Positions 1 to 25,309 of a stretch of 26,239 nucleotides of DNA are shown in pieces. The stretch covers positions 131,919 to 158,157 of IMG/VR virus record IMGVR_UViG_3300032030_000014; one strand, written 5' to 3'. The stretch's first letter is position 1. Every line of letters starts with the position of its first letter. Made by a program: the position numbers and the translations under genes. The notes beneath the pieces are model-generated. The model was not told where the DNA came from and did no database searches. It saw only the letters and a program-made list of their open reading frames with translations. Source of the DNA: a virus.

Positions 1-3000
1 TCATTGCATCTATCAACTATAAATATGCATCAATAAGAGCCATAATTTCATCATATTGTCTAATCCACTCTTCGGTTAGTGCCTAAGCCATAGTTAAAGT
101 TTCTTCTGATGCAGGAATAACTTCTTCAATCATCGTTTTAGCAAGAGCGTCATTCTATTTTGTTAAATCATCAAGCTATTGCTCTAACTCTCCCGCACCA
201 ACCTTAGCTTCTTCAGTAGCTTCCTAACGCATACTATTTAACCAGTCAATAGTTTCACCGGTCTCATGCATAAGAGTATCAGTTTCATTTTTAAAATCTT
301 CACCAGCATCTAAAACATCCTAAAAACTGGTGCCCCATGCTTCAGTATGATCTGTAACAGCAGTCTAATCTAACCAATATAATGCCCTATAATAACTTTC
401 ATAATCTTCTTGAATTAAAGCATTGTATTTATTATTAATATCTTCACGAAGTTTATTATAAGTTTCTTCATCGGCAATACGACCTTCGGCCCAAGCCATA
501 TCAAGATCTTTTAAAGCAGCATTACGCTCTTGTGTTAATTGAATAATCTTTTGAGTATAATCATTCGCTTGTCCAAGAACTAAGTTATATAAATCATTAT
601 TTTTCTTAGCTAAATCATCTTCAGCCGCATCAACCTATTCGCCATCTGCGGTATAAACATAGCCATAGTTGCCTTCGTTATCTCTTTGAAGACGAACTGT
701 AGACTTGGCGTTGCGTGCATCTTCAAGAGCTATTTCTGCTAAAAGAACTTCATAACGAGCTTTTGCAATATCCAATTCACTCTTACTAAGTTTATTTTTC
801 TATTGCAAACCTTCAATTTCAGCAGAAAAATTCTTTATTCTTAATTTAGCTGCATCATTATTTGTTTTATCTAAATCTTCAGCTAATTTTTTAATTAAAA
901 CATTAGTTTCATAAATCTAATTTGTTTTAGTCAAATATTCATCATCAAGGGCGTGCTGACGCTCTAAGGCATTATTAACCTAATCAAAACTGCCCCAGGC
1001 ACCAGATAAACGACGTTCTGAGTCTTGATAAATCTGGTTAATTCTATTTTCATAAATAGAATTAATAACCTCAAGATAAGCTTCAAAGTCAGCTTGCATT
1101 TCAGATTCAGCTTCAAGGAGAGCTTCTTTAGCAGGATAAAGAACAGCATTCTTCCATTCTTCTAATGCTGCCTCAGAAATACCATCAGCTAACAATTCCT
1201 AAAGAGTAGCCTCTGCATCAGCAACTTGACGGCGATACATTTCTGTCTATGCTTTAGATACTTCATATCCATTACGAGACATTTGTAATTGAGCATCAAG
1301 AATTTTACCAATAGCTTCATAGTCTGTCTATCTACCCAAGAGAGAAAGAACATTAGTTAGATGTTGGACGGTATTAAGCTAATGATCCATTTCATTAGTA
1401 ATGCGAGACATTTCATCCTTAACTTTACTAAGAACATTTTTATAATATTCTCGCATTTCCTCATTGATTTCCAACAAAGCATCTACACAACCATAAAGAC
1501 CATCTTGAGCATCTTTAATGGTCTAAACATAATCCTCTTGACTAATTTGTCCAGAAGAATAGAGAGATTGTGCTTCTTGATATGCGGAAGCCCAAGTACT
1601 GCCTTGATTGATAACTTCTGCTTTTGTATTTGTAACTCGTTTATCGAACCAAGAACGCATTACTTCTGGGACTTTATAGATATTATCTCCAAGGACTTTA
1701 ATAGCATATTCAATACGCTTTAAAGAGCGTTCACTAATTTCAACTTTAAGGTCTACTTTATATCTAAAATGCTCATAAACCTTAGCTTGTTGTTCATAAA
1801 GATTATCTAATAATTTATCAGATTGTTCTGTAAAAGTATTAATAGATTCATCATATTGATTTAATAGTTTTTGCATATACTCTTTAATGGCGGAAAGTCG
1901 ATCCCAATAAGCCGGATTGTTCTACTGTTCAATTGCGGTCATATTATTCCAAGTCTCAACATTTTTGTTCCACCAAGATTCTATTGCTTCTTCAATTTCA
2001 TCTCTATTAGCAATCTAGCCAAATTCATCTAACATTAAATCAAAATCAATACCAAGAACATCTTTTAATCCTTTCCAATCTTCTGTCTTACGACTTTCAT
2101 TACCATTTTCATCTTTTATTTTATACTAAATAGCTCCAACAACAGACGAAACAATTTTATTAAAATCTTTCTAAAGATTTCCGCCAGCCTTACCGGATGC
2201 GATAATCGCACCAAGATTTCCTCCACTTTGAAGAACCTTAGACAAATTATTCCAATCATCACCCGCAACAGCTTTTAAATAACGCTCATAAACTTGTTGC
2301 ATTTGTTTAAGCTTTGTGATTTCTTGCTCTAATAGAGCAATTTTATTTTTACCCCAAGCTCTATCTCGTGCCTTGCCAAGACGTTCATACTACTAAGAAA
2401 GACCTTCTAAAGTCTTATTTAATTCATCATAGCGATGTTCTTCGTCTTCTATAAGTTCTGCTTGACCAGTGGCCTCTTTTTCTGAGCCACCGCCTTTTTC
2501 ACCATCTTTTATTCCTGTTGTAGTAGGACCATAACTTGGCTGAATAAAATTAATTCCATTATCTTCATTTACTAAAGGAGAAAAAGCATCTGTAATAATT
2601 TCTGTCGAAGAAGTGTTACTATAATTTCCGGTTCCGGTATCTGTATATGAAGATATTTCATTAGTTTGCCCTTTATTACCACCTTTTTTAATTGGAGGTT
2701 TATTTTCTGTGACAATTTTAGTAGTTGCAGAACCAGATCCTTTAGTTCCCTTTATTGTATAAGTAGGAACATAACCAGTAACTTCAGCAGTATCTCCAGG
2801 GTAAGTAGTAGTAAATTTTTTATATAGAGGTTGATTTCTCTTCTATAAATTTCCAGCTGTGTCATAAAATTCAATTTCTTTAGAACCAGCATAAACCATC
2901 TACTCTTCTGTTATAGTAGTAGGTACGGTCATAGTTTGAGGATTATAACTTGTCTCAATATCTGCAGCAACATTAAGACCAGCCAATGTTGATTCAATCT

Positions 3001-6000
3001 ATTCTTTAGTCATTTTTCCTTTACTAATTAGATCATTAAAAGCATTAACTAAAGAAGTCTAATCCAATCCACCTGTTTCTAAATTTTCTGCAAGAGCAAT
3101 TTTTAATGCATTCCACTACTCTTCAAAACCAGACATATCTTCTCCGGCTTTTTCTAAATTAGTCTTAATATCTATAATTAACTAATCAGTAGCGACTTCT
3201 CTAAGCTTTAATATTGCTTCAACATTACCATCTAAAGCCTAAGTTAAATAAGCCGAATAAGTAGCATCTGTTAATAGACTCTAAGCAAATTCATCTGTTA
3301 AAACAGATATATCCATATTTAAAATATCGGCTAAATCTGTCTTAAGAGCATCCATAGTATTAGACCATTCAATACTATTTTTATCTGCTGAGCTTAAACT
3401 CTTTTTATAAGTTTCTAAGTTTTTATTAAGACTTAATAAACCTCTATCAAGTCTTTGATTTGCTATTGCTGCAGTTAAAGCAGATTTTTCCAATTGCTTT
3501 TCGCTAAAACCTGCTTCTTTCATTGCTTCTGACAAATTATTTTTTAATCTTTTAGCATAAGCCTCAGTTTCTTTTGCATCAAAGCCATGCTTTTCTGCCA
3601 ATTCAGCAACTGCAATAGAATATTTTAACGTCTCTTGTGCTGCAGCTGCAAGTTCTTTATTATTAGTGGTTAAAGCATGCTAATAAGCTTCTAAATCATC
3701 TGTACAAGACTCATATTTACTTGCCAAATCTTGTAAAGCTGCATTTTCCGCGAGAGTTTGAGCTTCTGTATCTATTCCAATTTCATTAAAACGCTATTTT
3801 ACATATTCAAGCTATTCTAATGAATCGGTTGCTGTCGCATAAGCAATGGCGTTAGCCTACATTGTTTCATAATCATTAACAACATGAGCTTCTTCACCTT
3901 CACCAATAATAGACTATCCAGATGAAATAAGACCTAAAGACCTTGCTCCTGCTGTTCCAGCTTCATTAATTTCTTGATTAGCGAATAAACCGATATAATT
4001 CTATAAATTTTTTTCAAAACCGACAGTAGATTCTTTAAATAATGCATCTTTAAATCCTTGTACATTTCCAACTAATTTATAAGTTCCATCTTCCATAATT
4101 TGGAAATAAGATTTAGCATGTTCTGAAAGTCCCTCAAGATTCTCAACAACATCACCAAATTTCAAAGATCCAAAAGCTTTATTTAAATTTTTAATATTTT
4201 CTTGAAGTGAAGAAATATCTTTTATCTAACTGCGATATATATCACCCAAAGAAATCTAATCTTTGATATATTGTTCAATACTATTAGCATCAATATTTGT
4301 ACCATTAAGATAATTATATAAATCCGCAAAAATCTATGCATCTTGTCCTGTTAAAGACATATTTTTAAAATCTTTAACATTTATTTTTGATAATTGTCCA
4401 GATAATAAATTAGTTAAAAGATCTTTATTTCCAGAAGAAAACTAAGAAGTCTTTTCAGCAATACTATTTAAAACATTGTTATATGTTTTAGGTAATTCAT
4501 TTTCTACTATAGATCGAGCTCTATTAGTAGCAACACTTTGTAAAACGCTATCTACAGATTTTTCAACATCTTTTCCTTGAATAGTATCATAATATTTAAA
4601 ATTACCATTTTGAATACCTTTAAAGGTTCCTGAAATTCCATTTAAATCAAAATATTCCTATAAAATTTTTTCTTTGTTTTCTGAATTAATTGTACTACTA
4701 ATTTCTGCATATCTTTTATCTATTTCATCCGCAGTCTATTCAGATAATATTTTACTTATAAAATTAGTAAAATCAGATAATCCTTTTTTTTCTGCCTCTT
4801 CCTAAAAGTCAGTATCATATAATAAACTGTTTGCTAAAATCTCAGAAGTATCACTAAAAGAAGAATTAAATTGTTTTGTATTATTAGCAGATTCTTTAAG
4901 ACTATCTTTAAAATCATGAAGCTCTGATAATGGTAAAATATTTTTAAATTCTTCTGCAAATCTATCCCAAGACATATTTGCATAATACTCAGCATTATCA
5001 AAAGCGGCATTTATATATTTTTCGTTATTTGTATTTGAAAACTTATCTTTAAGCTTATTATCATTTACCAGATTTTGCTAAGCAGAAAGTTTCATATTGC
5101 CATATAATGATATTGACTATAAACGATTAGCAGTTTTCTAAGCTTCCTTCTATATTTCTGCTAAATTTGTAATAATACGAACTCCATTGACATATTCGAA
5201 TTGCATTTTATTAACTAAATTTGGATATTTCTAAACAATGTCAATAGTAGCCTATTTTACTTCTGCTAAAGCATCATTCCATTCTTTTGTTCCTTTAACA
5301 CAATTATTTAATGTTTCAATAACTGAATCATAAGAATCTATAGTTGATTTTAATGATTCAGCATTTTGCTAAGCTTCATCAAAAGCATCTGATAAATCTT
5401 TTGCTGTTTTTTGAAATTTTTTCAGCTATCCTTCAGGAGATTTTTCTTTGATACCTTCAAAAACTTTAATAAGAACTGCTGCTACAGCAACAACAGCCCC
5501 TATAATTAAAGATATTTGCCAAAAAGCTAATTGAATTTTTGCTCCAGAAGCAGCAAGAGCAAGATTTGCTGTTGTCTATATTTTAGTCATATTTGTTATT
5601 AATGGCAAAATTGTTCCAACAGACATCATTAACTAAAGAGCTTTTTCTCCATTGGTTAAATCATCATTATTAAGAATATTACCTAAATTTTTTAAAGTAT
5701 TTATGGCTGAAGCAACACTCATTATTGTACTAGATAATGTTGACATAACTGAGCCAAAATCAAAAGAATATTGACCTAATGCTTTTAATTTTTCTCCAGT
5801 CTACTATGCACTATTACCTAGCTACGTTGTTTTATCTGAAGCATCTTGAGCTGCCTAAGCTGATCTTTGACAAGAGTCGGTAAACTATCCCGCTGCATTA
5901 CTTGCTTCTGCCGCACTCTATCCACTTTTCTAATAAGCAGCGGCCAATTTACCTTCCATATCTTCCAACTAAATCTAAAGATCTACCGGTAAAGCTTGTT

Positions 6001-8266
6001 TTAATTCAGAACTAAGCTATTTAATTCTATCAATGATATTCTAAAAAGCTTCTGGGCCATCTAAAGTGTTAATAGAAGAACCTAAATCACGAAAAGCCTA
6101 ATCTAAATTACCTATTAAATCCTCATTTTTGCTATCTAAGAGAGTTCCTTTTAAACTCTCTAAAGCAGGCATTTCAGTTGCTCCTATTTGTTTTAAATTA
6201 TTATATAACTCCTAACTTTCTTTGCTTGATAAATCTAAATTCTAAGGAATTTTTTTTGTAATAGATTCAAAAACAGCTGTTGCAGAAGAAGCAGCAGCCA
6301 TAGAGGTTGTCATTTTCTTTATTTCATTCTAATATTGCTGAATGTCTTCTGCTGAATAAGATTTATTTTTAGCGGCAGCTGCTCTACGAGCCTACTCACT
6401 TTGCTATTTTCCCAACTCGTTTGTCTGACGTTCTAATTCATCAGCTGTTTTTCCAGCAGTAATAGCTTCTTCACCCATCTATCTGTTCATATCTAATAGA
6501 AGCTATGCCTATTTCTATTCTTCCTCTGTCATATATTTAGCATTATCCAATAGTATTCCTTGCAAATTGGCTTGCTGCTTATAAGCTTCAGTCATAGCAC
6601 CACCCTAAGCAGTTCCCTATAATTCAGGAGAATTGGTCATTGCAAACAATTCTTTATTAGCCTATGCTCGTAAAGATTCTGCAGACTTCTATCCTTTTGG
6701 AGTCATCATAGCAATGCTTGAAACCATATTATTTATAGAAGTCTAAATCTATGCACTGAAAACAGAGGTTAAAACACTACCAAGAGTAAGTAATACTCCT
6801 TTTAATCCACCTATATTATCAATAAATTTATCCAAAAACGACAGAGTTTTTTCTAACCAATTTAATAATTTAATAAAAACCTTATCATCTAATAAATCTT
6901 GATAAATCGCCTAAGATGCAGCACGTACTCTTTTTCTTGCTGCTTCCCAACTTTCAGCATAAATATCTGCCTATTCTTGAAGAGTACCTTCAGAATTTGC
7001 TGCCAAATCCTAATTAGCAAGAATTTTATCATAATTATTCATAATTGCCATAAACTGAGCATACTGTCTAGTTCCGGCAACTGTTTCAGCTAAGGCAACC
7101 TTTTGAGCTTCTCCGATACTACTCCACTTTTCACTAAGTTCATCAAGAATAGTATCCATATCTTTTAAATCGCCATTGGCTTTAAGAATATTAACTCCAA
7201 CGGTATTAATAGCTTCTGAATATTTATTTAATGTAACTCCATCTTCAAGAGTTTCTCCAAGTTGAAGACCCTAAAAACGAGCAAACATCGTTTTAAAAGC
7301 AGTACCAACTACATCTGCACTTTGACGAGTTTCAGCAACAACAGTAGCTAATGCCGCAGTTGCTTTCTCATAACTTAAACCAACTGTATCTGCTACAGAA
7401 GCAAATTTCTATAAACCTTGAGCAATTTCATCAGAGCTTGATGCAGTTGCCGCACCTAATTTAGTAATAACATCTGCATAATACTCTAATGATTTAGAAC
7501 CATCATCAAAGTTATTCCAAATAGCAGTCATCTGACTTGAAACTTCTTCTGCACTCTAACGAGATACATTAGCTAATTTAATAGTTACATCTGTTCTCTC
7601 TTTTACAGCTTGATCATTTAAACCTTGCTGATAATAGATTAATGCGGCGTCGGTATATGCAGTTGTTGAAGTACTTAAAGCTTTAGCTGCACGATTTGCC
7701 TCATCCGCAAATTTAGCCATCTAATCAATAGATTGACCAGTGACAATTCTAATGTTATTTAAACTTTCATTTAAATCCTAAGCATAACCATAAGCACCTT
7801 GAAGAGCTCCCATAAATCCATGCAAAACACTAGAAGAAATTTGCCATCTTGCAGTATTCTTTAAAGTGGTAGCAAAATTGCTCAATAAAGCATTAGATCT
7901 TCTTAATGGAACTTCTGCCTACATAATAGACGAAGCTAATTTAGAAAATGCCTAAGAGCCTTCTGGACCTAAAGAAGATAAGGCAGCTCTATAATCACTT
8001 AACTTTAAACCACTTTTCTACAGCCCTTCATTAAATTTTGTTAAATCTAATTTACCTGTAGAAGAAGTAGCAGATTCCAACTAAACTTTTAACTATGCAG
8101 CCATCTATGTAGCTTTTTGAATTTCAGAAGATAATCCTAAAGAACTATCTTTTCTTTGAGCTGACATCATTAAATTGTCCAACTACTTCTATAAAGCCTA
8201 TAATTCTATCTTAGCTTTACTTGTATCAGCTGTCATAGCTAAATTAACATTTAATTGTTTAGCCAT
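1..8266 (-). CDS. Tail tape measure protein, 5' complete with the 3' end beyond the window start (more than 2,750 codons). It contains many in-frame TAG codons read as sense.
   Basis: The ATG at 8266-8264 follows an AAAGGAG site (rc of 8271-8284). The standard-code ORF fragments 980..1195, 1523..1876 and 3281..3601 and the start codon all share one minus frame (top coordinate = 1 mod 3). Hand translation of 8266-8078, 1876-1500 and 1195-600 shows only TAG interruptions. Five 60-nt stretches I sampled (2401, 4201, 5101, 6001, 7201) contain no in-frame TAA or TGA. The N-terminus translates as MAKQLNVNLAMTADTSKAKIEL*AL*K*LDNLMMSAQRKDSS, which is coiled-coil with TAG at Gln-like positions. Its length and its position after a chaperone gene fit a tape measure protein. 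Confidence 0.75.
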
Positions 8267-8300: not shown

Positions 8301-8339
8301 AAAAAAATAAGGGGTAGGAAATAATCTATTTCCTACCCC
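8301..8339 (-). terminator. Rho-independent terminator between the chaperone gene and the tape measure start.
   Basis: Perfect 12-bp stem GGGGTAGGAAAT (8311-8322), 5-nt loop, ATTTCCTACCCC (8328-8339). An A-run at 8301-8308 gives a U-tract on the minus-strand transcript. Confidence 0.7.
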
Positions 8340-10100: not shown

Positions 10101-10147
10101 AATAAAAAAAATGGGAGAAGACTTGCGTCTCCTCCCATTAATTTTTT
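10101..10147 (-). terminator. Rho-independent terminator after the major tail protein gene, apparently bidirectional.
   Basis: Stem ATGGGAGAAGAC (10111-10122) / GTCTCCTCCCAT (10127-10138) with one mismatch and loop TTGC. It is flanked by an A-run (10101-10110) and a T-run (10142-10147). Confidence 0.65.
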
Positions 10148-13682: not shown

Positions 13683-13990
13683 TTCATCAACCCCCGCAAT
13701 AATCCAATGGCTTCAAAGACTGTTTTTCGATACAAGGGAAAGTCAGTAACAGCAGCCATTGCTTTAATTCCTTCTAGTTTGGCTAATAACTATAAAAATT
13801 GCGGGTTCTCAATAAAAATCTCATTAAGTCCCGCAATTTCTAAAATTACTGTATCAAGTTGTTTCTACCAATCTTCATTATTTTCACGCATCGGAATTAA
13901 TTTCCACATCTAATTAGTTAATCTAATAATATTTTTTTCAAAAACTTCTGCGGAAATTTCAAAATCATATTTAGTTAGAGTATCTATCAT
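13679..13990 (-). CDS. Small hypothetical protein (about 103 aa, 3 in-frame TAG). The start is uncertain and could instead be the ATG at 13909.
   Basis: An in-frame ATG at 13990 follows a GGGGGG site 6 nt upstream and overlaps the end of the upstream gene by about 20 nt. Stop is TGA at 13679-13681. Confidence 0.4.
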
Positions 13991-14606
13991 AATAAACCCC
14001 CCAACCAAATACATCCCAATTAGAGCGATACATTCCATCATAAGAAGTTCCTGTATCTCTAATCATTCTTCTGCGTTTATATAATCTTTGCATGTGGATA
14101 GATTGAGTTTTACACTCGTTCAATAACCCCATCAATTTTTGTAAATGATTTGCTTGAGAAGTCATTTTAAAATCGCTACCAGAATATTTCATTCTAGTAT
14201 TTTCAATAGATGTAACCTGTCTTTGAACCCAGGCTTGCATCATAAGAATAGCAATAATATTAATTTCTTCAGATGTTAATTCAAAATTAAATACTGAATT
14301 TTCAACTAATACCATTTCTTCTTGATCATTCGCAAGCATATTATCTAAATCAAAATTATCTCCCTCTAATTCATGCCAAACAATACCCAGAACAAAATCT
14401 CCATCTGTAACTTCACTACGAGGTTTTACAACTGTATTTATCGTATAATCAGATAAATTACATCTTGGAAATTCAAAACCAGGCAAAGCGTCAAGAAGTA
14501 AGGTCTGTAAATCCCTTAACGTATCTTCTGGAGTTAATTCCACATACATATCATCGGTAATTTTTCCGAGAAAGCGGTCGTAAATAGTGCTAAAAGATGT
14601 ATTCAC
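13971..14606 (-). CDS. Hypothetical head-completion or connector protein (211 aa, no TAG).
   Basis: Intact standard-code ORF with a GTG start at 14606 after an AAGGGGG site and a TAA stop at 13971. Confidence 0.5.
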   Translation of the reverse strand: MNTSFSTIYDRFLGKITDDMYVELTPEDTLRDLQTLLLDALPGFEFPRCNLSDYTINTVVKPRSEVTDGDFVLGIVWHELEGDNFDLDNMLANDQEEMVLVENSVFNFELTSEEINIIAILMMQAWVQRQVTSIENTRMKYSGSDFKMTSQANHLQKLMGLLNECKTQSIHMQRLYKRRRMIRDTGTSYDGMYRSNWDVFGWGVYYDRYSN

Positions 14607-14627
14607 TACTCACGCCCCCTTAAAATA

Positions 14628-15209
14628 TTATCCTTCGTCGGCTTTCTTACTAATTACTTTATAATTGGTAGTAGTACGACGTCCTGCCGCAGCTGTTGTC
14701 TAAGGCTTTACTCTACGCTCTGGCTGAGCTGGTTCAATAAAGTCGCCTTCTTCTGCTTTTTCTTCTTCAATATGAACAAGAGCCTTATCAACATCAAAGC
14801 CAGTCTTTTCCTTCAAAGCCTTTCTCTTATTCAAATCAGTCAAAGGAAGTTGAACGGCAAGTGTCTTAATAAGATCAATTACTCCCAATGGAGCAAAATC
14901 AAGGGCATCAAGAAAAGCATCTAAAGAACCACGTAAAAGCAAATCTCTAACCTGAACCTCAGACATATCATACTCTACTTCACGATGAACATTCAAATCT
15001 GAAGTAACAACTTCATCACCAATTTGTAGAAATTGTTCAAGCATTTCACGTCCACCTGGTTGATAAGTTAGTTTTTCTAACTCACCAAAGGGAATTTTCT
15101 TTGTCTCACCGGGAGCAAATTCACGACGAAGATTGCTCTCTGGAATTCTATACACTACTGAACTTGCACTTCTATTTTTTACTAAATACATTGTATCTTG
15201 CTTAATCAT
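14628..15209 (-). CDS. Hypothetical head-completion or connector protein (193 aa, 1 in-frame TAG near the C-terminus).
   Basis: ATG at 15209 with an AAAGGAG site. Standard-code ORF 14700..15209 continues through TAG 14700-14702 to TAA at 14628-14630. Confidence 0.55.
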
Positions 15210-15232
15210 AATTATTCTCCTTTTTCTCTTAG

Positions 15233-15275
15233 TAAAAAAAGGGGAGAGGGGAACTTCCCCGTCTCCCCTTTTACT
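15233..15275 (-). terminator. Rho-independent terminator after the capsid gene.
   Basis: Stem GGGGAGAGGGG (15241-15251) / CCCCGTCTCCCC (15257-15268) with loop AACTT. An A-run at 15233-15240 gives a U-tract on the minus-strand transcript. Confidence 0.65.
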
Positions 15276-15301
15276 CTTTTATTATTTAATTATTTATAAA
15301 A

Positions 15302-16453
15302 TCAAGGATTTTGACCAGAAATAGGCTGATCGTCACTTACGCCACCATCAAGATAGCCACTCTTGCGGCCATCATAAGTTGCGATATTGCCATCAACGCC
15401 ATTGAGATTCCAATTAATCATCTGGCCAAGGAGTGATGTATCAACATAGCAGCAAATGTTGTTGGCAAGGATAGCAGTTACGCCAACCTTCTTGTAAACC
15501 TGGACTTCACGAGAACGGTCATAGTTATTGAATTCATCAACAATTGTGCCACCCTCGAAAGCGATTTTTACAGGCTTGCCATCAACGCCAGTAGGAATTA
15601 CCCAGCAATAACCTGGATCAATTACCTTACGAGTATTAGTTTCATCCTCAAAGCCTTGCTCAAGAATGATAACTTTTGTGCCCTTATAGTTTGCAAGACG
15701 ACCAGTATTCCAAAGCTCGGTCTTCATAGCTTCAGTATAACGCCAAGCTTCGTTAGGAATCATCTTTACAGCAAATTCATAAGTACAATAAATAGTAGGA
15801 GTACCGTATGCGGAAGCAATCTGGATAAGACGATCCATTGCACCCTCATCGAAACCAACAGCAGCAACACGGTTTGCTGGAGGAAGCTGATTGATAGAAG
15901 CCTTAAGGGCTGCAGCTACCTCTTTATAAATAAGTTCGTCCATACCTTCCATAATGATACGAGTTACTTCTGCGAAGTCAACACGACCATCAAGGAACTC
16001 TTCGAAGCCGATCTGAGCGGCTCCGCCGATGGCACTGGTACGTACTTCGAAGGCTTCCTTCTCGGCAGGACCGAGCTTGAAGACTTCGTAGATACCAGCA
16101 AGTCCAACACGTGTTACGAACTGCTTTGCACGGGCACGTGTATTAAGTGGACGACGGAATACAGGCTTATCACCCTGAGCAAACTGCTTAACTTCAGCGA
16201 ACTGATTGTAAGATTGCTCAACTTTCTTTGGAAGGACTTCATCAAGAGTCTCTTCAATCATAGAGAAAATAAGGTTCTTATTTTCACGATACTGTGCGTA
16301 AGTGCCAGCCAGCTCATTAAGCTCATTACGGAGAGTTTCATTAAGAGCAGCATAAGAAAGCTGCTGATCACCGTAAGAATAAGCTACAGGAGCAGAAGGG
16401 TCGGCCTTAGCAACTTGCTTCATTAAAGCAACTAAATTAGCTCTATCTAACAT
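15302..16453 (-). CDS. Major capsid protein, putative (383 aa, no TAG, GC-richer).
   Basis: Intact ORF with a GGAGAG site and a TGA stop followed directly by a terminator. It sits downstream of the portal/scaffold block. The sequence has a capsid-like feel, reminiscent of gpE-type or HK97-fold coats. This rests on my reading of the protein, not on a database search. Confidence 0.5.
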   Translation of the reverse strand: MLDRANLVALMKQVAKADPSAPVAYSYGDQQLSYAALNETLRNELNELAGTYAQYRENKNLIFSMIEETLDEVLPKKVEQSYNQFAEVKQFAQGDKPVFRRPLNTRARAKQFVTRVGLAGIYEVFKLGPAEKEAFEVRTSAIGGAAQIGFEEFLDGRVDFAEVTRIIMEGMDELIYKEVAAALKASINQLPPANRVAAVGFDEGAMDRLIQIASAYGTPTIYCTYEFAVKMIPNEAWRYTEAMKTELWNTGRLANYKGTKVIILEQGFEDETNTRKVIDPGYCWVIPTGVDGKPVKIAFEGGTIVDEFNNYDRSREVQVYKKVGVTAILANNICCYVDTSLLGQMINWNLNGVDGNIATYDGRKSGYLDGGVSDDQPISGQNP

Positions 16454-16471
16454 TACTCTTCTCTCCTTTCA

Positions 16472-17536
16472 TTAAGCGATACGCATAATCTTTACGCCAC
16501 GCTGATTATCAGGCATGGTGTAAATCTTAACAACCTGCCATACCATGTCGCCAGAAGCGGCACCATTTGTATCGGCAGAAGCCTTTTTTGTCTTGCAAAG
16601 AATACCCTTATCTCCAACATAGAGAGGATCTCCAACAGAAAGGGTCTCGGTAAATTCACCAGTAGAAGAATTTACTGCAAGATTAATTGTATTAGTGGTG
16701 AAAATATCACCAACGTTAGTCTTGAATACACGAGGAACCATCTGAGTGCCGGTGGGCATTCTCTTCTCGCGGTAAAGACCAAGGCGTCTCCAAGGATCAT
16801 TAGTGAAGCCCCACTCGTAGTAATCTTCCTTATCCTTGGTTACATCTTCCATCATATACTCAACAGGAACCTGAGTCTTAGAAGTACCATTTTCATCAAG
16901 CTCATACTGTTTGCCATTGTAAGTAAATACTTTTGCTTCATGGGTCTTAGCTGGGACATAACCATCTTCGCCCTCGGTGCCAGAGGCAGGAGTATCAGTA
17001 ATTGTGGTTGTGCTTACAGCATAACGCTTATCACCAATAGTAACTGTCTGTCCTTCAATATCAAGAGTGACATACTGGTTGAGAGTCATTGGCTTTTCTC
17101 TTACAGGATTACCATTATCATCAACAAGATTGAGTCTATGCCAATCCTTATATTCAATCTCAGCATTCTCATAATCATATGGACTATAAATACGAGCCTG
17201 ATAATCATCCTTTAACATTGCAAATTCGCAATCCCACTGCTTACTTCCATCTGGAAGGTTACGATAAAGCTTGATTTCGTTGTAAACGAGCATCCATTCA
17301 CCTGCGCCAGTGAAATCTACGAGACCAATGCCATTACCATTAGCAGCGTAATCATATTTTACGAACTGACCCTGCTCGAGAATTTCAATACTTGGATCAG
17401 CGGGTAACTGGGCATAAATTTGAGCTGTTCTCTGAGCAGAAAGATGATTTGGTTCAACTTGACCGTAGCCGAATTCAACATAACTAGCTTGAGACTGAAT
17501 AGGCATACGAGTCTTTAAAAAATCTTTAAACATCAT
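16472..17536 (-). CDS. Abundant head protein of unknown type, possibly a decoration or second capsid protein (354 aa, no TAG, GC-richer).
   Basis: Intact ORF starting ATGATG after an AAGGAGG site, ending at TAA 16472. It lies between the scaffold and capsid genes. Confidence 0.45.
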   Translation of the reverse strand: MMFKDFLKTRMPIQSQASYVEFGYGQVEPNHLSAQRTAQIYAQLPADPSIEILEQGQFVKYDYAANGNGIGLVDFTGAGEWMLVYNEIKLYRNLPDGSKQWDCEFAMLKDDYQARIYSPYDYENAEIEYKDWHRLNLVDDNGNPVREKPMTLNQYVTLDIEGQTVTIGDKRYAVSTTTITDTPASGTEGEDGYVPAKTHEAKVFTYNGKQYELDENGTSKTQVPVEYMMEDVTKDKEDYYEWGFTNDPWRRLGLYREKRMPTGTQMVPRVFKTNVGDIFTTNTINLAVNSSTGEFTETLSVGDPLYVGDKGILCKTKKASADTNGAASGDMVWQVVKIYTMPDNQRGVKIMRIA

Positions 17537-17557
17537 CGTTCAGTTTTCCTCCTTTTA

Positions 17558-19123
17558 TTAGTTTAATGTTTTTGCGGTATTTATGGCAGCTCTTACCCAA
17601 GCTGGAGTAGAGCTGTCATCTCCTTCGTCTCCATTGAGGTTATAAGTAGTTGGACCTTCGGGGGTATTGCCTTCCTCGGTCTTGAAACTAACCTTATTGC
17701 GGAAACAAATGACTGAAAGCTTTGCCTCAATATCATCAAGAGAATATTTATCAATGTTGTCAATAACATCTTTCTTATCCTCATCTGATAACATATAAAA
17801 TTCAGCAATCTTAGCTTCTTTTTCTACGCGTTCTGCCTTAGACTTAAATTTGCGTAAAGAAGTAAGTTCACTATTAAGACCCTCAATTGTTGTATTAAGG
17901 GTGGCAACCTGGGCTTCAAGATTAGAATAATTAGTCTGAAGTTCAACATATTCAGGAATTTCATCTAATGTATCATAAGAATATTTCTTATTCTTCTTCT
18001 TTTCTTCCTCATCATCATCATCAGACTTTTTATCTTCTTCTGAATCATCTTCAGATTTCTTTTCTTCTTCTTCACCAGATTTGCCCTTTTCTTCCTCTTC
18101 TTCATCCTTTTTCTTGGCATATTCAGCATTATATGCTGCAACAGCCTCGGCAGAAAATTGTGGTTCTGCGGCAGGAACATAAGTCTTTGTTACTTCAACA
18201 AGATTTTCATCTGCCTTGAAACCTTCTGCTTCTGAAATGGAGAAGTTTAAACGATAGTATTTTGCTTCTGCACGATCATACAGAATAACAAACTTTTGCC
18301 CGCCATTCTCTTCGAAAATACCATCAATAGAATACTTGGAGCACCAGCTATCATTCTCGTCTGGATATTTATCAACTATATACTAATGAATAGCAGACCA
18401 AAGTTCGTCGCCAATTTCAACTGCATAAGTATTAAACACTTTCGTTCCTCCTTCTGTAATTAATTCTTTTACTTCATTTATCATTGCAAACATTTTCTTT
18501 TTAAAAGAATCATCAATGACAAGTGAAAAAGATGTAATTTGTGAACCTTCAAAGCAAGGTTCAAATTTTTCTCCTAAAATGCAAAGTTTTTCAACAAATG
18601 CTTCATTAATAATGAAAAATTCAAGGTCGCTATTCTTATCTTTTGTCCAATCAGCTTTTAAAGTTTCTTCATCAAGTTCCATAGACTAATTATTGCCATT
18701 TGTCTTAATTCTTTTTGCTTCTGGATAAACATGATCCCAAACATAACCTTCAGTACATAAATACTCATGTTCAGACTATGCATCATCTATATAAGTAGCA
18801 AACCAAATCTTTGCATCTGTAGAAACAAAACCATAAGGTGTGGTTGTATCTGTGATTTTCCATTCACCACCAGAAATATCTATCTGACGATTGTGTTCTT
18901 CAAAATCTTCATCTTTATCATTGAAAAAACCAACAATTGGACATCCTCTTAAACTGGGTGCCATTTCTCTCGCAACATCCTTAGTAATAATACTACCATT
19001 GCGATTTGGTTCATCACCAACATAACACACCTTAATCAATACCTTTGAAATAAAAGGACTGATTTTTGTACTCTCAATAAATTCAATAGGAGAATTTAAT
19101 TTTAATACACTTGAATGTTTCAT
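17558..19123 (-). CDS. Head-maturation/scaffold fusion protein (522 aa). The N-terminal globular domain may be a prohead protease and carries 3 TAG. The C-terminal acidic coiled-coil scaffold domain carries none.
   Basis: ATG at 19123 with a GGAGGG site. Standard-code fragments 18776..19123, 18383..18682 and 17558..17794 are in one frame. Hand translation from 18776 to 17794 is continuous with no TAA or TGA. The central stretch reads DEEEEEKGKSGEEEEKKSEDDSEEDKKSDDDDEEEKKK, followed by coiled coil. Stop is TAA at 17558. Confidence 0.55.
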
Positions 19124-20838: not shown

Positions 20839-21195
20839 TTAATAGCCAGCCTTATGCATTATATAATCATAAGAAATCAAATTCTCTTCTGTATAGGGAA
20901 TTTCAATTAGTTTAAAATCATGTAAAGCACAAAATCTTCGCTTTCGGTTATCATTGTATTGCTACTAATAAAGACCACGTTTTCCACCAAATTTGGAACT
21001 GGCCTCGTAATGCTATTTACCCTAATATTCTATAATAAAGTCAATATTTCCATCATCATCAAATACAACAAAATCAAAACGAAGAGGTCTGCCGCTGGCC
21101 GCAACTAAATCAGGAAAACTATATTCCTCTTTAAAATTAAATCCTGCATCTATCAAAATTTCTTCTATTCTAATTTCTCCTCTTGACGCACGCAT
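20839..21195 (-). CDS. Vsr/DUF559-like endonuclease-fold protein (PD-(D/E)xK superfamily), about 118 aa with 4 in-frame TAG. Possibly a free-standing homing endonuclease.
   Basis: ATG at 21195 directly after the terminase TAA, with an AGGAGAGG site. Translation reads MRASRGEIRIEEILIDAGFNFKEEYSFPDLVAASGRPLRFDFVVFDDDGNIDFIIEYQGKQHY. The FDFVV...IEYQGKQHY stretch resembles the Vsr/DUF559 core. Stop is TAA at 20839-20841. Confidence 0.45.
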
Positions 21196-24244: not shown

Positions 24245-25309
24245 TTAAGTTATAGACTTTTGCCCAGATTTAGCATTTCTACAAGATTTGCATATACTGT
24301 AAAAGCCATCTTTACTGGTTTTGTTTTTACTGAAATATTTATTATGAGCTAATTTAATTTGCCCACAACGACTACATCTTTTATACCGACCTTTTTGAAT
24401 ATTTAAATAATACCAAGATAAATATTCATCCTCAGCCGCAGATGCGATTAATTTAGGTATTTTATTTCTCCATAAACTTGAAATATATTCTACACTATGT
24501 TTTATACCAAATTCCTACTATAATATTTCTTGTATATCTATATTTTGCAATCCATCTATTTTACATTCTAATAATCGCATATATAAGGGATAAGGTTCTA
24601 AGGCTTTATCGCAAATTGTTTCAAAATCATAAAGCATATACCAAGTATCACCTTCAAATTTATCCCAAGTGTCTTGTTTTAAACGAGAATAATTACAAAG
24701 AATTGCTTCGCAAACTTTAGGGTCCATTAATGAGAGTCCTTCTGGAATTGGATAACCTTCATCATCAAAATCTTTTGTTTTATCAATTAATTCTATAAAA
24801 TGTGTTGAACGAGTAATTTTATTAAATATAATAGGACATCTATAACCATTTTTTATAACATATTGGTCTTTACGCATTTCAATTAAGGCTTTTTTCATTA
24901 CAAACTTGTCTTTTCCTTCAACAGTCTTTAACTTTGCTTCCCAAATATCAATGGTTTCTTTTAACTATTTAAGTAATGGTATTTCTTCTAAATCTTTTTC
25001 GGTTATCTTTACTTTTGGCTAAAAAATTGTCTATTTGTTTTCTGTAATTAAATTATAAATTCCATCTTCGCCATTTTCAAGTTGAGCAACAAGACCTTCA
25101 AAGGAAGTCTCTCGTTTATTTACTGTAGTCATTCGATTTTCAGTAAGAATTTTTTTCTCCTTTTTCTCTTGCTTCTCCATAGCAAAAATAAGATAGTCTG
25201 CTAAAATCTCTAAATATTTTTCATTAGGATTAGGATTTTCTTCTAAAATTTTCTAAACTAACTCATTTCTTTCTTCTGGAGAAGTTAAAGTGTAATCAAG
25301 TTTAATCAT
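24245..25309 (-). CDS. Hypothetical protein with a C-terminal C4 Zn ribbon (354 aa, 6 in-frame TAG). First gene downstream of the leftward promoter, so it could be a regulator or DNA-binding protein.
   Basis: ATG at 25309 with a GGAGG site. The frame runs continuously through standard-code ORF 24518..24898 and the TAG pair at 24518 and 24515 to TAA at 24245-24247. The C-terminus reads RCSRCGQIKLAHNKYFSKNKTSKDGFYSICKSCRN. Confidence 0.5.

Follow-up and report, generated by a model that had tools for sequence, protein, structure and literature searches.

The window analysed here, namely the whole stretch of 26,239 nucleotides at positions 131,919 to 158,157 of IMG/VR virus record IMGVR_UViG_3300032030_000014, covers the head-tail module of a large uncultured phage that reads TAG as Gln and whose genome is probably about 190 kb in size. 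The minus strand is the coding strand for all genes in the window (Table 1). If TAG is taken as a sense codon, the stop-to-stop span of open reading frames, counting those of at least 100 codons in all six frames together, grows from 15.6 kb to 35.3 kb, and reading through TAG gives intact portal, large terminase and tape measure genes. The 17 complete genes stop with TAA (12) or TGA (5), and none of them with TAG. What is more, in standard-code relatives Q accounts for 53% of the residues opposite 61 TAG sites of the window, against a background of 4.1%; it is the majority residue at 32 of these 61 columns, with E coming second. These observations point to genetic code 15, in which TAG stands for Gln. 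A search for tRNA genes found none in the window and none in 22 related loci of the structural module; phAss-1, a distant relative, carries three tRNA(CUA) genes.

Table 1. Features of the head-tail module discussed in the text, with positions counted within the window
Feature	Positions	Strand	Remarks
g06, head-assembly protein (phrog_3313), 521 aa	17558..19123	-	C-terminus acidic, coiled-coil-like
Putative nested scaffold ORF, 293 aa	17558..18439	-	in-frame GTG 18439-18437; RBS AAGGAGG 18453-18447
g07, uncharacterised head-module protein, 354 aa	16472..17536	-	0 TAG, 14 CAG, 3 CAA
g08, major capsid protein, 383 aa	15302..16453	-	0 TAG, 13 CAG, 4 CAA; GC 0.44
Terminator-like hairpin with seven-U run	15234..15268	-	begins 34 nt 3' of capsid stop; dG -27.4 kcal/mol, z = -3.2
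g09, 193 aa	14628..15209	-	1 TAG
g10, 211 aa (phrog_3853)	13971..14606	-	0 TAG, ordinary codon bias
TAG-poor run	13913..18382	-	flanking in-frame TAGs 18385-18383 (g06 codon 247) and 13912-13910 (g11 codon 27)
g15, presumed major tail (tube) protein, 365 aa	10149..11246	-	phrog_2729, virion structural protein; 2 TAG
Strong terminator-like hairpin	10139-10110	-	after g15

The product of g08 shows 25% identity to annotated capsid proteins of Bacillus phages and a weak match to an HK97-fold capsid model. For g07, no Pfam, PDB or fold match was obtained, and a fold search with g15, whose presumed role as the tail tube is based on gene order, gave no significant match. Terminator-like hairpins lie 9-34 nt 3' of the stop codons of the capsid and tail-tube genes.

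The TAG-poor run comprises 1,415 in-frame codons with a single TAG (14702-14700), where 24.8 would be expected from the density of 17.5 per 1,000 codons seen in ordinary genes without the tape measure (Poisson P = 4.5e-10). In terms of Gln codons, TAG makes up 0 of 34 in g07 and g08 together and 167 of 364 elsewhere (Fisher p = 3.6e-9). The partial tape measure gene, for comparison, has 97 TAGs in 2,755 codons, the portal gene 10, g16 (370 aa) 12, g14 (243 aa) 9 and g06 three, the final one at 18385. Most of the original prediction, which had been made by reading the letters, agrees with these counts: a stretch of roughly 1,400 nearly TAG-free codons, a lone TAG near the C-terminus of the 193-aa gene (codon 170 of g09), about 12 TAGs in the 370-aa gene, at least eight in the portal, two in the major tail protein and Gln still encoded by CAA and CAG in g07 and g08. 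The 243-aa gene is indeed TAG-rich, with a count slightly off the ten or so that had been given, and the six TAGs claimed for the first 55 codons of the tape measure turned out to be four.

That the head genes are GC-richer, as had also been claimed, holds as well: GC is 0.41 in g07, 0.44 in g08, 0.39 in g15 and 0.38 in g09 versus 0.28-0.36 in other genes, while GC3 is 0.34-0.35 in g07 and g08 (0.335 in g07) versus 0.16-0.26 in all others. Tallying TAG gene by gene, as had been proposed as a check, gives no ordinary TAG density in g07 or g08. The further claim of more GCC, CTG and GGC codons fits only in part, in that GGC is enriched, GCC slightly so (0.16 versus 0.11), and CTG stands at 0.02 in both sets. 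Namely, the codons enriched in the high-bias genes are CAG (0.77 versus 0.10 in the rest), AAG (0.77 versus 0.23), CGT (0.76 versus 0.33), CTT (0.68 versus 0.25), TTC (0.63 versus 0.12), ATC, TGC and GGC, whereas ATA falls from 0.20 to 0.02, and NCG codons (GCG, ACG, CCG), GTG, GGG, AGG, CGA and CGG are missing altogether. In other words, the shift is a codon-specific signature of translational selection and not a plain rise in G/C-ending codons. In standard-code relatives the codon bias of the same genes runs in the same direction: they are GC-richer and CAG-rich there as well, and CAG accounts for 0.51-0.75 of Gln codons in g07, g08, g09 and g15 versus 0.18-0.38 elsewhere.

Codon bias, which within the window is most pronounced in g08, also predicts TAG avoidance, which is graded. 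With a bias score that excludes Gln codons and is weighted by the capsid genes of standard-code relatives, a negative correlation is obtained between bias and the proportion of TAG among Gln codons, both in the window (rho = -0.76, p = 4e-4) and across the family (rho = -0.84, p = 2.5e-5). In ordinary genes, TAG exceeds CAG by 2.8-4.6 to 1, TTG exceeds CTG by 6-7 to 1 and CAA exceeds CAG by 2.8-4.4 to 1. The TAG:CAG ratio is thus no higher than that of comparable AT-favoured synonyms, and the enrichment of TAG elsewhere needs no adaptive explanation.

The same depletion recurs among relatives. In 52 recoded relatives, TAG occurs at 0.73 per 1,000 codons in g07, 0.73 in g08 and 0.58 in g15, and at 6-36 per 1,000 in other genes, with g09 being intermediate (1.9 per 1,000, CAG share 0.34). 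Depletion is seen in 22 of 22 recoded lineages (Wilcoxon p = 4.8e-7), defined as clusters at 10% amino-acid distance, which are related and partly recombinant (between-gene distance-matrix correlations of 0.25-0.48) and hence not fully independent samples. The distant relative phAss-1 shows this pattern likewise, with TAG in its large terminase and tape measure and none in its capsid gene or g15 homolog. The gene g10, for its part, lies outside the conserved TAG-poor set, since its TAG density in relatives is 16.9 per 1,000 codons; its lack of TAG within the window alone has p = 0.004. The original picture of one contiguous TAG-free block is therefore right about the low count in the window and wrong about the inclusion of g10, and the conserved set instead consists of the C-terminal part of g06, g07, g08, partly g09, and g15. 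Zero TAG without codon bias, as in g10, is not accounted for by expression-linked avoidance.

Could these genes simply be GC-richer or slow-evolving, such that TAG has not arisen in them by chance? TAG depletion is in part compositional, because g07 and g08 also have about 3-fold less off-frame TAG. In addition, protein conservation is highest for the capsid protein (82%), and fast evolution has been suggested, in a preprint, as a predictor of TAG appearance. Nevertheless, in-frame depletion pooled over the relatives is about 20-fold or more (0.7 versus roughly 17 per 1,000 codons). Slow protein evolution is also not the cause, given that g07 and g15, with a mean protein conservation of only 53-58%, are TAG-free, whereas g04 (82% conserved) and the large terminase (74%) carry 14-20 TAG per 1,000 codons. 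Finally, synonymous sites are saturated, and CAA and CAG vary at 22 of 23 conserved-Gln columns of the high-bias genes, meaning that there was time enough for TAG to appear; it fills 5 of 420 cells there as compared with 427 of 1,290 in the other genes. We therefore regard a neutral origin of the pattern as very improbable.

Where the depletion begins is also informative. In g06, TAG is in use over the N-terminal 228 codons and avoided beyond, its share of Gln codons in the 22 recoded lineages dropping at codon 220 from 0.31 to 0.068 (Fisher p = 1.4e-9), and a trend in TAG use from 5' to 3' is seen in no gene other than g06. The upstream boundary of the TAG-poor block matches the position of a conserved internal start that lies in frame within g06, upstream of the capsid gene, with the layout AAGGAGG-N7-GTG (18453-18437). 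At the nucleotide level, 23 of the 24 lineage representatives retain the GGA GGA of this site, and among the 24 the start codon is GTG in 21, ATG in two and GTA in one, although GTG makes up just 5-9% of Val codons elsewhere. In phage lambda, the C/Nu3 pair is arranged in this manner: the 3' part of a head-assembly gene, directly upstream of the capsid gene, contains an in-frame internal start with its own ribosome binding site. The 3' portion of g06 appears to be a nested scaffold gene of the same type, which would yield an abundant C-terminal scaffold beside a rarer full-length protein. Unlike in lambda, the basis for this reading is synonymous-site conservation and a switch in codon usage. 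The N-terminal 228 residues had no match in Pfam, NCBIfam or PDB, and no protease family could be assigned to them.

The position of this edge bears on a second explanation put forward at the outset, that of a head block lately acquired from a standard-code phage, in which TAG has not yet accumulated. The block is indeed TAG-free and GC-richer, the same family does include standard-code relatives with 86% capsid protein identity, and the family's gene trees agree only moderately. What is more, g10 combines the absence of TAG with ordinary bias and a CAA:CAG ratio of 7:2, like ordinary genes of standard-code relatives. That said, the boundary falls inside g06 at an internal start codon and not at a module junction, and a search for a closer standard-code donor of g10 found none. 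Compared with the nearest standard-code relative, g07 has a third-position identity of 0.532 and g08 one of 0.536, within the range of 0.50-0.585 covered by all genes, so recent import from any sampled standard-code relative is ruled out, and the divergence of the block is in step with that of the rest of the genome. The suggestion that the capsid and 354-aa proteins might have standard-code phages as their nearest relatives was not upheld either. Namely, of the 16 genes compared, 12, among them g07 and g08, have the recoded lineage L001 as their nearest relative, and the remaining four are closest to recoded L003 or L004, nearest-relative identity being 72-87% at the nucleotide level. A transfer also fits poorly with depletion in all 22 recoded lineages and in g15 outside the block, with its extension to phAss-1 beyond any narrow clade, and with the CAG- and GC-richness of the same genes in standard-code relatives. 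Altogether, we consider mosaic acquisition of the head module extremely unlikely.

We also considered a division of the genome into blocks with different codes, standard for early and recoded for late genes, and rejected it: the TAG-poor genes lie inside the late head-tail module, are non-contiguous and avoid TAG to graded degrees.

In light of the above, we think it quite likely that the pattern reflects expression-linked avoidance of the reassigned TAG in the most heavily translated ORFs. This is the one preferred of the two explanations originally offered, namely that selection acts against the recoded codon in virion proteins of the highest copy number, and it is favored by the recurrence across lineages, by the scaling of depletion with a Gln-free measure of codon bias, by its onset in g06 at a conserved internal start and by the presence of the same bias in standard-code relatives. 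As for the unit of avoidance, highly translated ORFs (the nested scaffold, g07, g08, g15 and, partly, g09) stand, and a contiguous block does not. Protein copy numbers are here those suggested by function (capsid, scaffold, tube) or gene order; for g07, a high copy number is predicted circularly, from its own codon bias.

Mechanistically, TAG behaves in most late genes as an ordinary AT-favoured synonym for Gln, while in the most heavily translated ORFs, namely those of the scaffold with its internal start, of g07, of the capsid and tail-tube proteins and, less strongly, of g09, purifying selection would purge it together with other poor codons such as ATA, TTA, AGG, CGA and NCG. A suppressor tRNA(CUA) presumably competes with host release factor 1 at every TAG, so that each TAG would cost some premature termination and slower decoding, and this cost would grow with the number of times an ORF is translated.

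Expression timing and abundance are confounded in sequence data. One could argue that the bulk virion proteins are TAG-free so that their translation can precede the suppressor tRNA or do without it, with TAG locking the other late genes until the code switch. A published model does hold that recoded stops delay late and lysis genes, the host code suffices to translate TAG-free ORFs, and the terminator-flanked capsid and tube genes could sit on separate transcripts. However, procapsid assembly needs at its start both the portal, with its ten TAGs, and the full-length g06 product, with TAG in its N-terminal part, and early capsid protein alone would therefore be of little use. In addition, avoidance is graded with codon bias and not all-or-none, and the same bias is present in standard-code relatives, which lack a code switch. 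Temporal control of this kind strikes us as rather improbable. A further possibility, which goes beyond avoidance as such and which we put forward only tentatively as an unlikely one, is that TAG density may be used, or may at least operate, as an inherent control over the stoichiometry of the virion in this family. Some loss to release factor 1 at each TAG would then translationally down-tune the low-copy portal, terminase, tape measure and connectors in proportion to their TAG load, with the bulk scaffold, g07, capsid and tube being kept TAG-free.

That highly expressed genes avoid reassigned stop codons is known from ciliates. In Blastocrithidia (PMC12153298), in-frame reassigned stops are likewise distributed non-randomly and depleted in the most highly expressed genes, and the depletion tracks codon-adaptation measures and was read as avoiding a translational burden. 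The phage case is a new example of this known principle, with several differences. Namely, translation here takes place on the ribosome of a standard-code host with a functional release factor 1, the contrast is found within one late operon-like module and even within one gene, and the depleted set is suggested by virion stoichiometry and not by measured expression.

Studies of recoded phages that treat recoding as a lock on late genes and lysis (Borges et al., preprint 10.1101/2021.08.26.457843; Peters et al., PMC9523058; Yutin et al., PMC7886860) place the emphasis on enrichment among genes for structure and lysis. The present family resembles these phages in reassigning TAG to Gln, in the abundance of TAG in the tape measure, portal and terminase, and in the occurrence of standard-code and recoded lineages at short evolutionary distances; it differs in the avoidance of TAG by its genes for major capsid, scaffold and tube. 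One tail-tube family of crAss-like phages has been reported in the same studies to prefer TAG, and the avoidance rule is thus not universal. Phage phAss-1 of the Phassvirus group (PMC10607447; 136 kb, 44.5% GC, TAG read as Gln) belongs to the same broad lineage as the window, with a capsid protein identity of 50%, whereas the window has a GC content of about 34% and is part of a larger genome. The phAss-1 report lists its TAG-bearing ORFs without noting or interpreting the absence of TAG from the capsid and tube genes.

In the bulk virion proteins of this phage family, TAG is avoided and not enriched, and its level in the remaining late genes does not exceed what AT mutation pressure would give by itself. 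This would imply that amber suppression on a standard-code host is still measurably costly, and the series of genes with graded TAG load offers natural material for measuring that cost. In practical terms, tools that assign genetic codes block by block could mislabel TAG-free stretches as standard-code, while the combined pattern of TAG and codon bias can expose hidden translation units, such as the putative nested scaffold start at 18439, and flag proteins like that of g07 as probably abundant. Finally, if the stoichiometry reading were true, recoding would set the relative yields of proteins within one late transcript, and not only the timing of late genes.

The window carries a phage head-tail module. 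All of the 18 genes that we called from ribosome-binding sites and start codons lie on the minus strand, in keeping with a negative GC skew throughout. Once TAG is read as sense, the six-frame sum of stop-to-stop ORFs with 100 or more codons grows from 15.6 kb to 35.3 kb and fragments fuse into a single tape measure ORF, and TAG terminates none of the genes. What is more, at 61 TAG sites in g01 to g17, 53% of the residues in standard-code relatives are Q, as compared with a background of 4.1%, with E coming next. A suppressor tRNA was found neither in the window, where there is no tRNA of any kind, nor in the related loci. The first gene product matches the phage 'sigma factor' PHROG (E = 8e-55), and its Cys-rich C-terminal segment bears a likeness to HNH or endonuclease VII zinc fingers. 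Taken with the tube gene, a tape measure of this size implies that the tail is very long. In NCBI and ENA, 8 contigs, the longest of 188,616 bp, encode a protein, P0121, that matches g15 at 100% identity and whose protein family has a precomputed Pfam assignment, PF27173. As for g15 being a tail tube, Foldseek gave no significant match and the AlphaFold2 model has a pLDDT of 61. No usable clue to the function of g07 (model pLDDT 50) came from sequence and profile searches of PHROGs, Pfam, NCBIfam and the PDB, or from Foldseek on the PDB.

Genes and sequence features of the window, in order along the minus strand
Feature	Position	Strand	Description
g01	24245-25309	minus	sigma-factor-like protein, 354 aa; 6 TAGs; heads the structural module
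g02		minus	between g01 and large terminase
g03		minus	large terminase
g04	20839-21195	minus	HNH or homing-endonuclease-like, 118 aa; between large terminase and portal; 4 TAGs
g05		minus	portal
g06		minus	head-assembly protein, 521 aa; phrog_3313
Ribosome-binding site AAGGAGG	18453-18447	minus	5' of internal GTG in g06
Internal start GTG	18439-18437	minus	g06 codon 229, in-frame
g07		minus	354 aa
g08		minus	capsid protein, 383 aa
Terminator-like hairpin and U-run	15234-15268	minus	34 nt 3' of capsid stop; z = -3.2
g09		minus	193 aa
g10	13971-14606	minus	211 aa
g11 to g14		minus	between g10 and g15
g15		minus	virion structural protein, presumed tail tube, 365 aa
Terminator-like hairpin and U-run	10102-10139	minus	9 nt 3' of g15 stop; z = -4.8
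g16 and g17		minus	between g15 and tape measure
Terminator-like hairpin and U-run	8304-8339	minus	3' of g17, just before tape measure gene; z = -5.7
g18	1-8266	minus	tape measure, > 2,755 codons, extends past window end; 97 TAGs = 52% of Gln codons

Per-gene in-frame counts agree with the TAG-poor block of the original prediction, which comprised the C-terminal half of the scaffold (g06) and g07 to g10. Namely, TAG is absent from g07, g08 and g10 and from g06 past codon 247 (18385), and g09 has a single one, at 14702. Over this run of 1,415 codons, 1 TAG is observed versus 24.8 expected from the density of ordinary genes, tape measure left out (P = 4.5e-10). When Gln codons are compared by Fisher test, p is 3.6e-9 for g07 and g08 together and 7.7e-12 for g07 to g10. 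The gene that had been called the major tail protein, g15, is likewise TAG-poor, with two TAGs. The TAG-rich genes are the portal gene (10), g14 (9), g16 (12) and the tape measure gene, whose first 55 codons hold four TAGs and not six, as had been stated.

Scanning IMG/VR with the capsid protein yielded 80 syntenic loci, which are 70-95% identical and lie on contigs no longer than ~200 kb. TAG is recoded in 52 of them; another 23 follow the standard code, with TAG in no gene, and a few have very little TAG. Pooled over the recoded loci, there are 0.73 TAG per 1,000 codons in g07, 0.73 in g08, 0.58 in g15 and 1.9 in g09, as against 6-36 in all other genes. Clustering by large terminase and portal at 10% amino-acid distance gives 22 recoded lineages, window included, and in 22 of 22 the TAG density of these four genes is below that of the others (Wilcoxon p = 4.8e-7). 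The relatives thus confirm the depletion of g07, g08 and g15 but not that of g10, where they carry 16.9 TAG per 1,000 codons. In other words, the zero in g10 of the window (0 TAG among 9 Gln codons, p ~0.004) is no family trait; its codon bias is ordinary, even its closest relative shares just 72% identity, and a separate search for a standard-code donor found none. In the low-TAG lineages (members L063, L064 and L073-L076), TAG is confined to the low-bias genes g03, g05, g06 and g11-g14, rarely g01 and g02, and is densest in g11 and g14. Standard-code, TAG-recoded and low-TAG members are interleaved in the large terminase and portal clustering (L010-L015, L046, L068, L078-L080 and others versus L001-L009), a pattern suggesting that recoding was gained or lost repeatedly. 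A scan of genome contigs placed relatives in metagenome bins alone, the labels being Bacillota, Clostridia, Lachnospiraceae or 'Mollicutes', which is a hint at the host and no evidence of integration; the strong AGGAGG ribosome-binding sites of the window fit the Bacillota or Clostridia bins.

One could argue, as the original prediction did in its alternative, that the TAG-poor block was taken from a standard-code phage, in which case its genes should stand closest to such phages. We compared each gene with the 23 standard-code relatives at the nucleotide level and at third codon positions. Third-position identity to the nearest of them is flat, at 0.50-0.585 for every gene (g07 0.532, g08 0.536), and for 12 out of 16 compared genes, g07 and g08 (the 354-aa and capsid proteins) among them, the nearest relative is the recoded locus L001; nearest-relative nucleotide identity is 72-87% across the window genes. 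In the standard-code relatives, g07, g08, g09 and g15 are likewise GC-richer, with a CAG share of 0.51-0.75 versus 0.18-0.38 elsewhere, so the compositional peculiarity is a family trait, independent of the genetic code. We reject a recent import from any of the standard-code relatives sampled.

Slow evolution and lack of time are rejected as well. If slow evolution were the cause, the depleted genes should be the conserved ones; however, mean conservation is only 53-58% in g07 and g15, which are TAG-free or TAG-poor, whereas g04 (82% across the phage family) and the large terminase (74%) carry 14-20 TAG per 1,000 codons. Neither was time lacking, since 22 of 23 conserved Gln columns in g07, g08 and g15 switch between CAA and CAG among recoded lineages. 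TAG occupies 5 of 420 cells in such columns, as compared with 427 of 1,290 cells, and 63 of 67 columns, in other genes. Pure composition, judged by off-frame versus in-frame TAG, accounts for only ~3-fold of the depletion. Finally, if nonsense errors were costlier late in a gene, TAG should generally become rarer from 5' to 3'; outside g06 there is no such trend.

The depleted genes share a strong codon bias. A comparison of g07, g08 and g15 with the remaining window genes is tabulated below; in addition, GCG, GTG, ACG, CCG, TCG, GGG, AGG, CGA and CGG do not occur in these three at all. Of the codons originally thought to be enriched, GCC barely is and CTG is not. Judged by codon usage, the bias is a putative signature of codon-specific translational selection and no general shift to G/C-ending codons, and it has the same direction in the standard-code relatives.

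Codon usage in the high-bias genes (g07, g08, g15) and in the remaining window genes
Codon	High-bias genes	Other genes
TTC	0.63	0.12
ATC	0.25	0.07
TGC	0.78	0.29
AAG	0.77	0.23
CAG	0.77	0.10
CGT	0.76	0.33
CTT	0.68	0.25
TTA	0.11	0.53
ATA	0.02	0.20

A bias score that omits Gln codons and takes its weights solely from capsid genes of standard-code relatives falls as the TAG share of Gln codons rises, both in the window without g08 (Spearman rho = -0.76, p = 4e-4) and among lineage representatives (rho = -0.84, p = 2.5e-5). The genes form a gradient: g08 > g15 ≈ g07 > g09 > g06 > rest. In ordinary genes CAA:CAG:TAG is 0.44:0.10:0.46, and TAG exceeds CAG 2.8-4.6 to 1, no more than in the AT-favoured pairs TTG:CTG (6-7 to 1) and CAA:CAG (2.8-4.4 to 1); TAG there looks like a near-neutral synonym under AT mutation pressure. 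The strong terminator-like hairpins 3' of the capsid gene and g15 sit where terminators are usual after the late genes with the most abundant expression; counting the one at g17, the three hairpins lie 9-40 nt 3' of the stop codons. The number of sites in a promoter scan was not above shuffled expectation.

The upstream edge of the block falls within g06. Across lineages, TAG density drops from ~10 to ~2 per 1,000 codons near codon 220-260, exactly where an internal GTG sits at codon 229, and TAG makes up a fraction of 0.31 of the Gln codons before this start and 0.068 after it (Fisher p = 1.4e-9). The Gly-Gly pair preceding it is encoded GGA GGA in 23 of 24 lineage representatives of either code, and the start codon itself is GTG in 21, ATG in 2 and GTA in 1; in ordinary genes, GGA makes up about one third of Gly codons and GTG 5-9% of Val codons. 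From this we infer a separately initiated nested scaffold ORF of 293 aa, of the same type as lambda C/Nu3, which would explain why the C-terminal half of the scaffold belongs to the TAG-free block, as had been predicted.

Annotated distant relatives of the capsid protein are those of phAss-1 (50%), the Enterococcus phages EF1 and VRE9 (43%) and SPbeta-like or Bacillus phages (~25%), the last annotated as major capsid protein. In phAss-1, which is TAG-recoded, neither the capsid gene nor the homolog of g15 has any TAG, and both use CAG almost exclusively, while the tape measure gene has 110 TAGs. Its tRNAs include three tRNA(CUA), tRNA-Gln(CUG), tRNA-Lys(CUU) and tRNA-Glu(CUC); they cover CAG, AAG and GAG, which are codons preferred in high-bias genes. 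The TAG-rich genes of phAss-1 (L081-L083, OQ749652) have an unusually low GC3, ~0.2 versus ~0.5 genome-wide, and appear as fragments in GenBank, where the annotation uses the standard code. In the paper on phAss-1, the large terminase and tape measure are listed as carrying TAG, without comment on the capsid gene (PMC10607447). The open-access literature describes an enrichment of recoded phage stops in structural and lysis genes and reads it as a lock on late genes, and according to one analysis a crAss-like tail-tube family prefers TAG and integrases avoid it. We found no explicit report of TAG avoidance in phage capsid, scaffold or tube genes in open-access text. In Blastocrithidia, reassigned stop codons are avoided in highly expressed genes (PMC12153298).

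Why, then, is TAG kept out of these genes? One possibility is timing, the bulk proteins being made ahead of the code switch. This fits less well, because the portal and the full-length g06 product contain TAG, because avoidance is graded and not all-or-none, and because standard-code relatives share the codon bias. On the reading with the best support, a suppressor tRNA(CUA) decodes TAG and would compete with host release factor 1. Premature termination or slow decoding would then cost more as translation volume rises, on the expression levels presumed here, so that purifying selection would exclude TAG from the bulk virion ORFs and tolerate it elsewhere.
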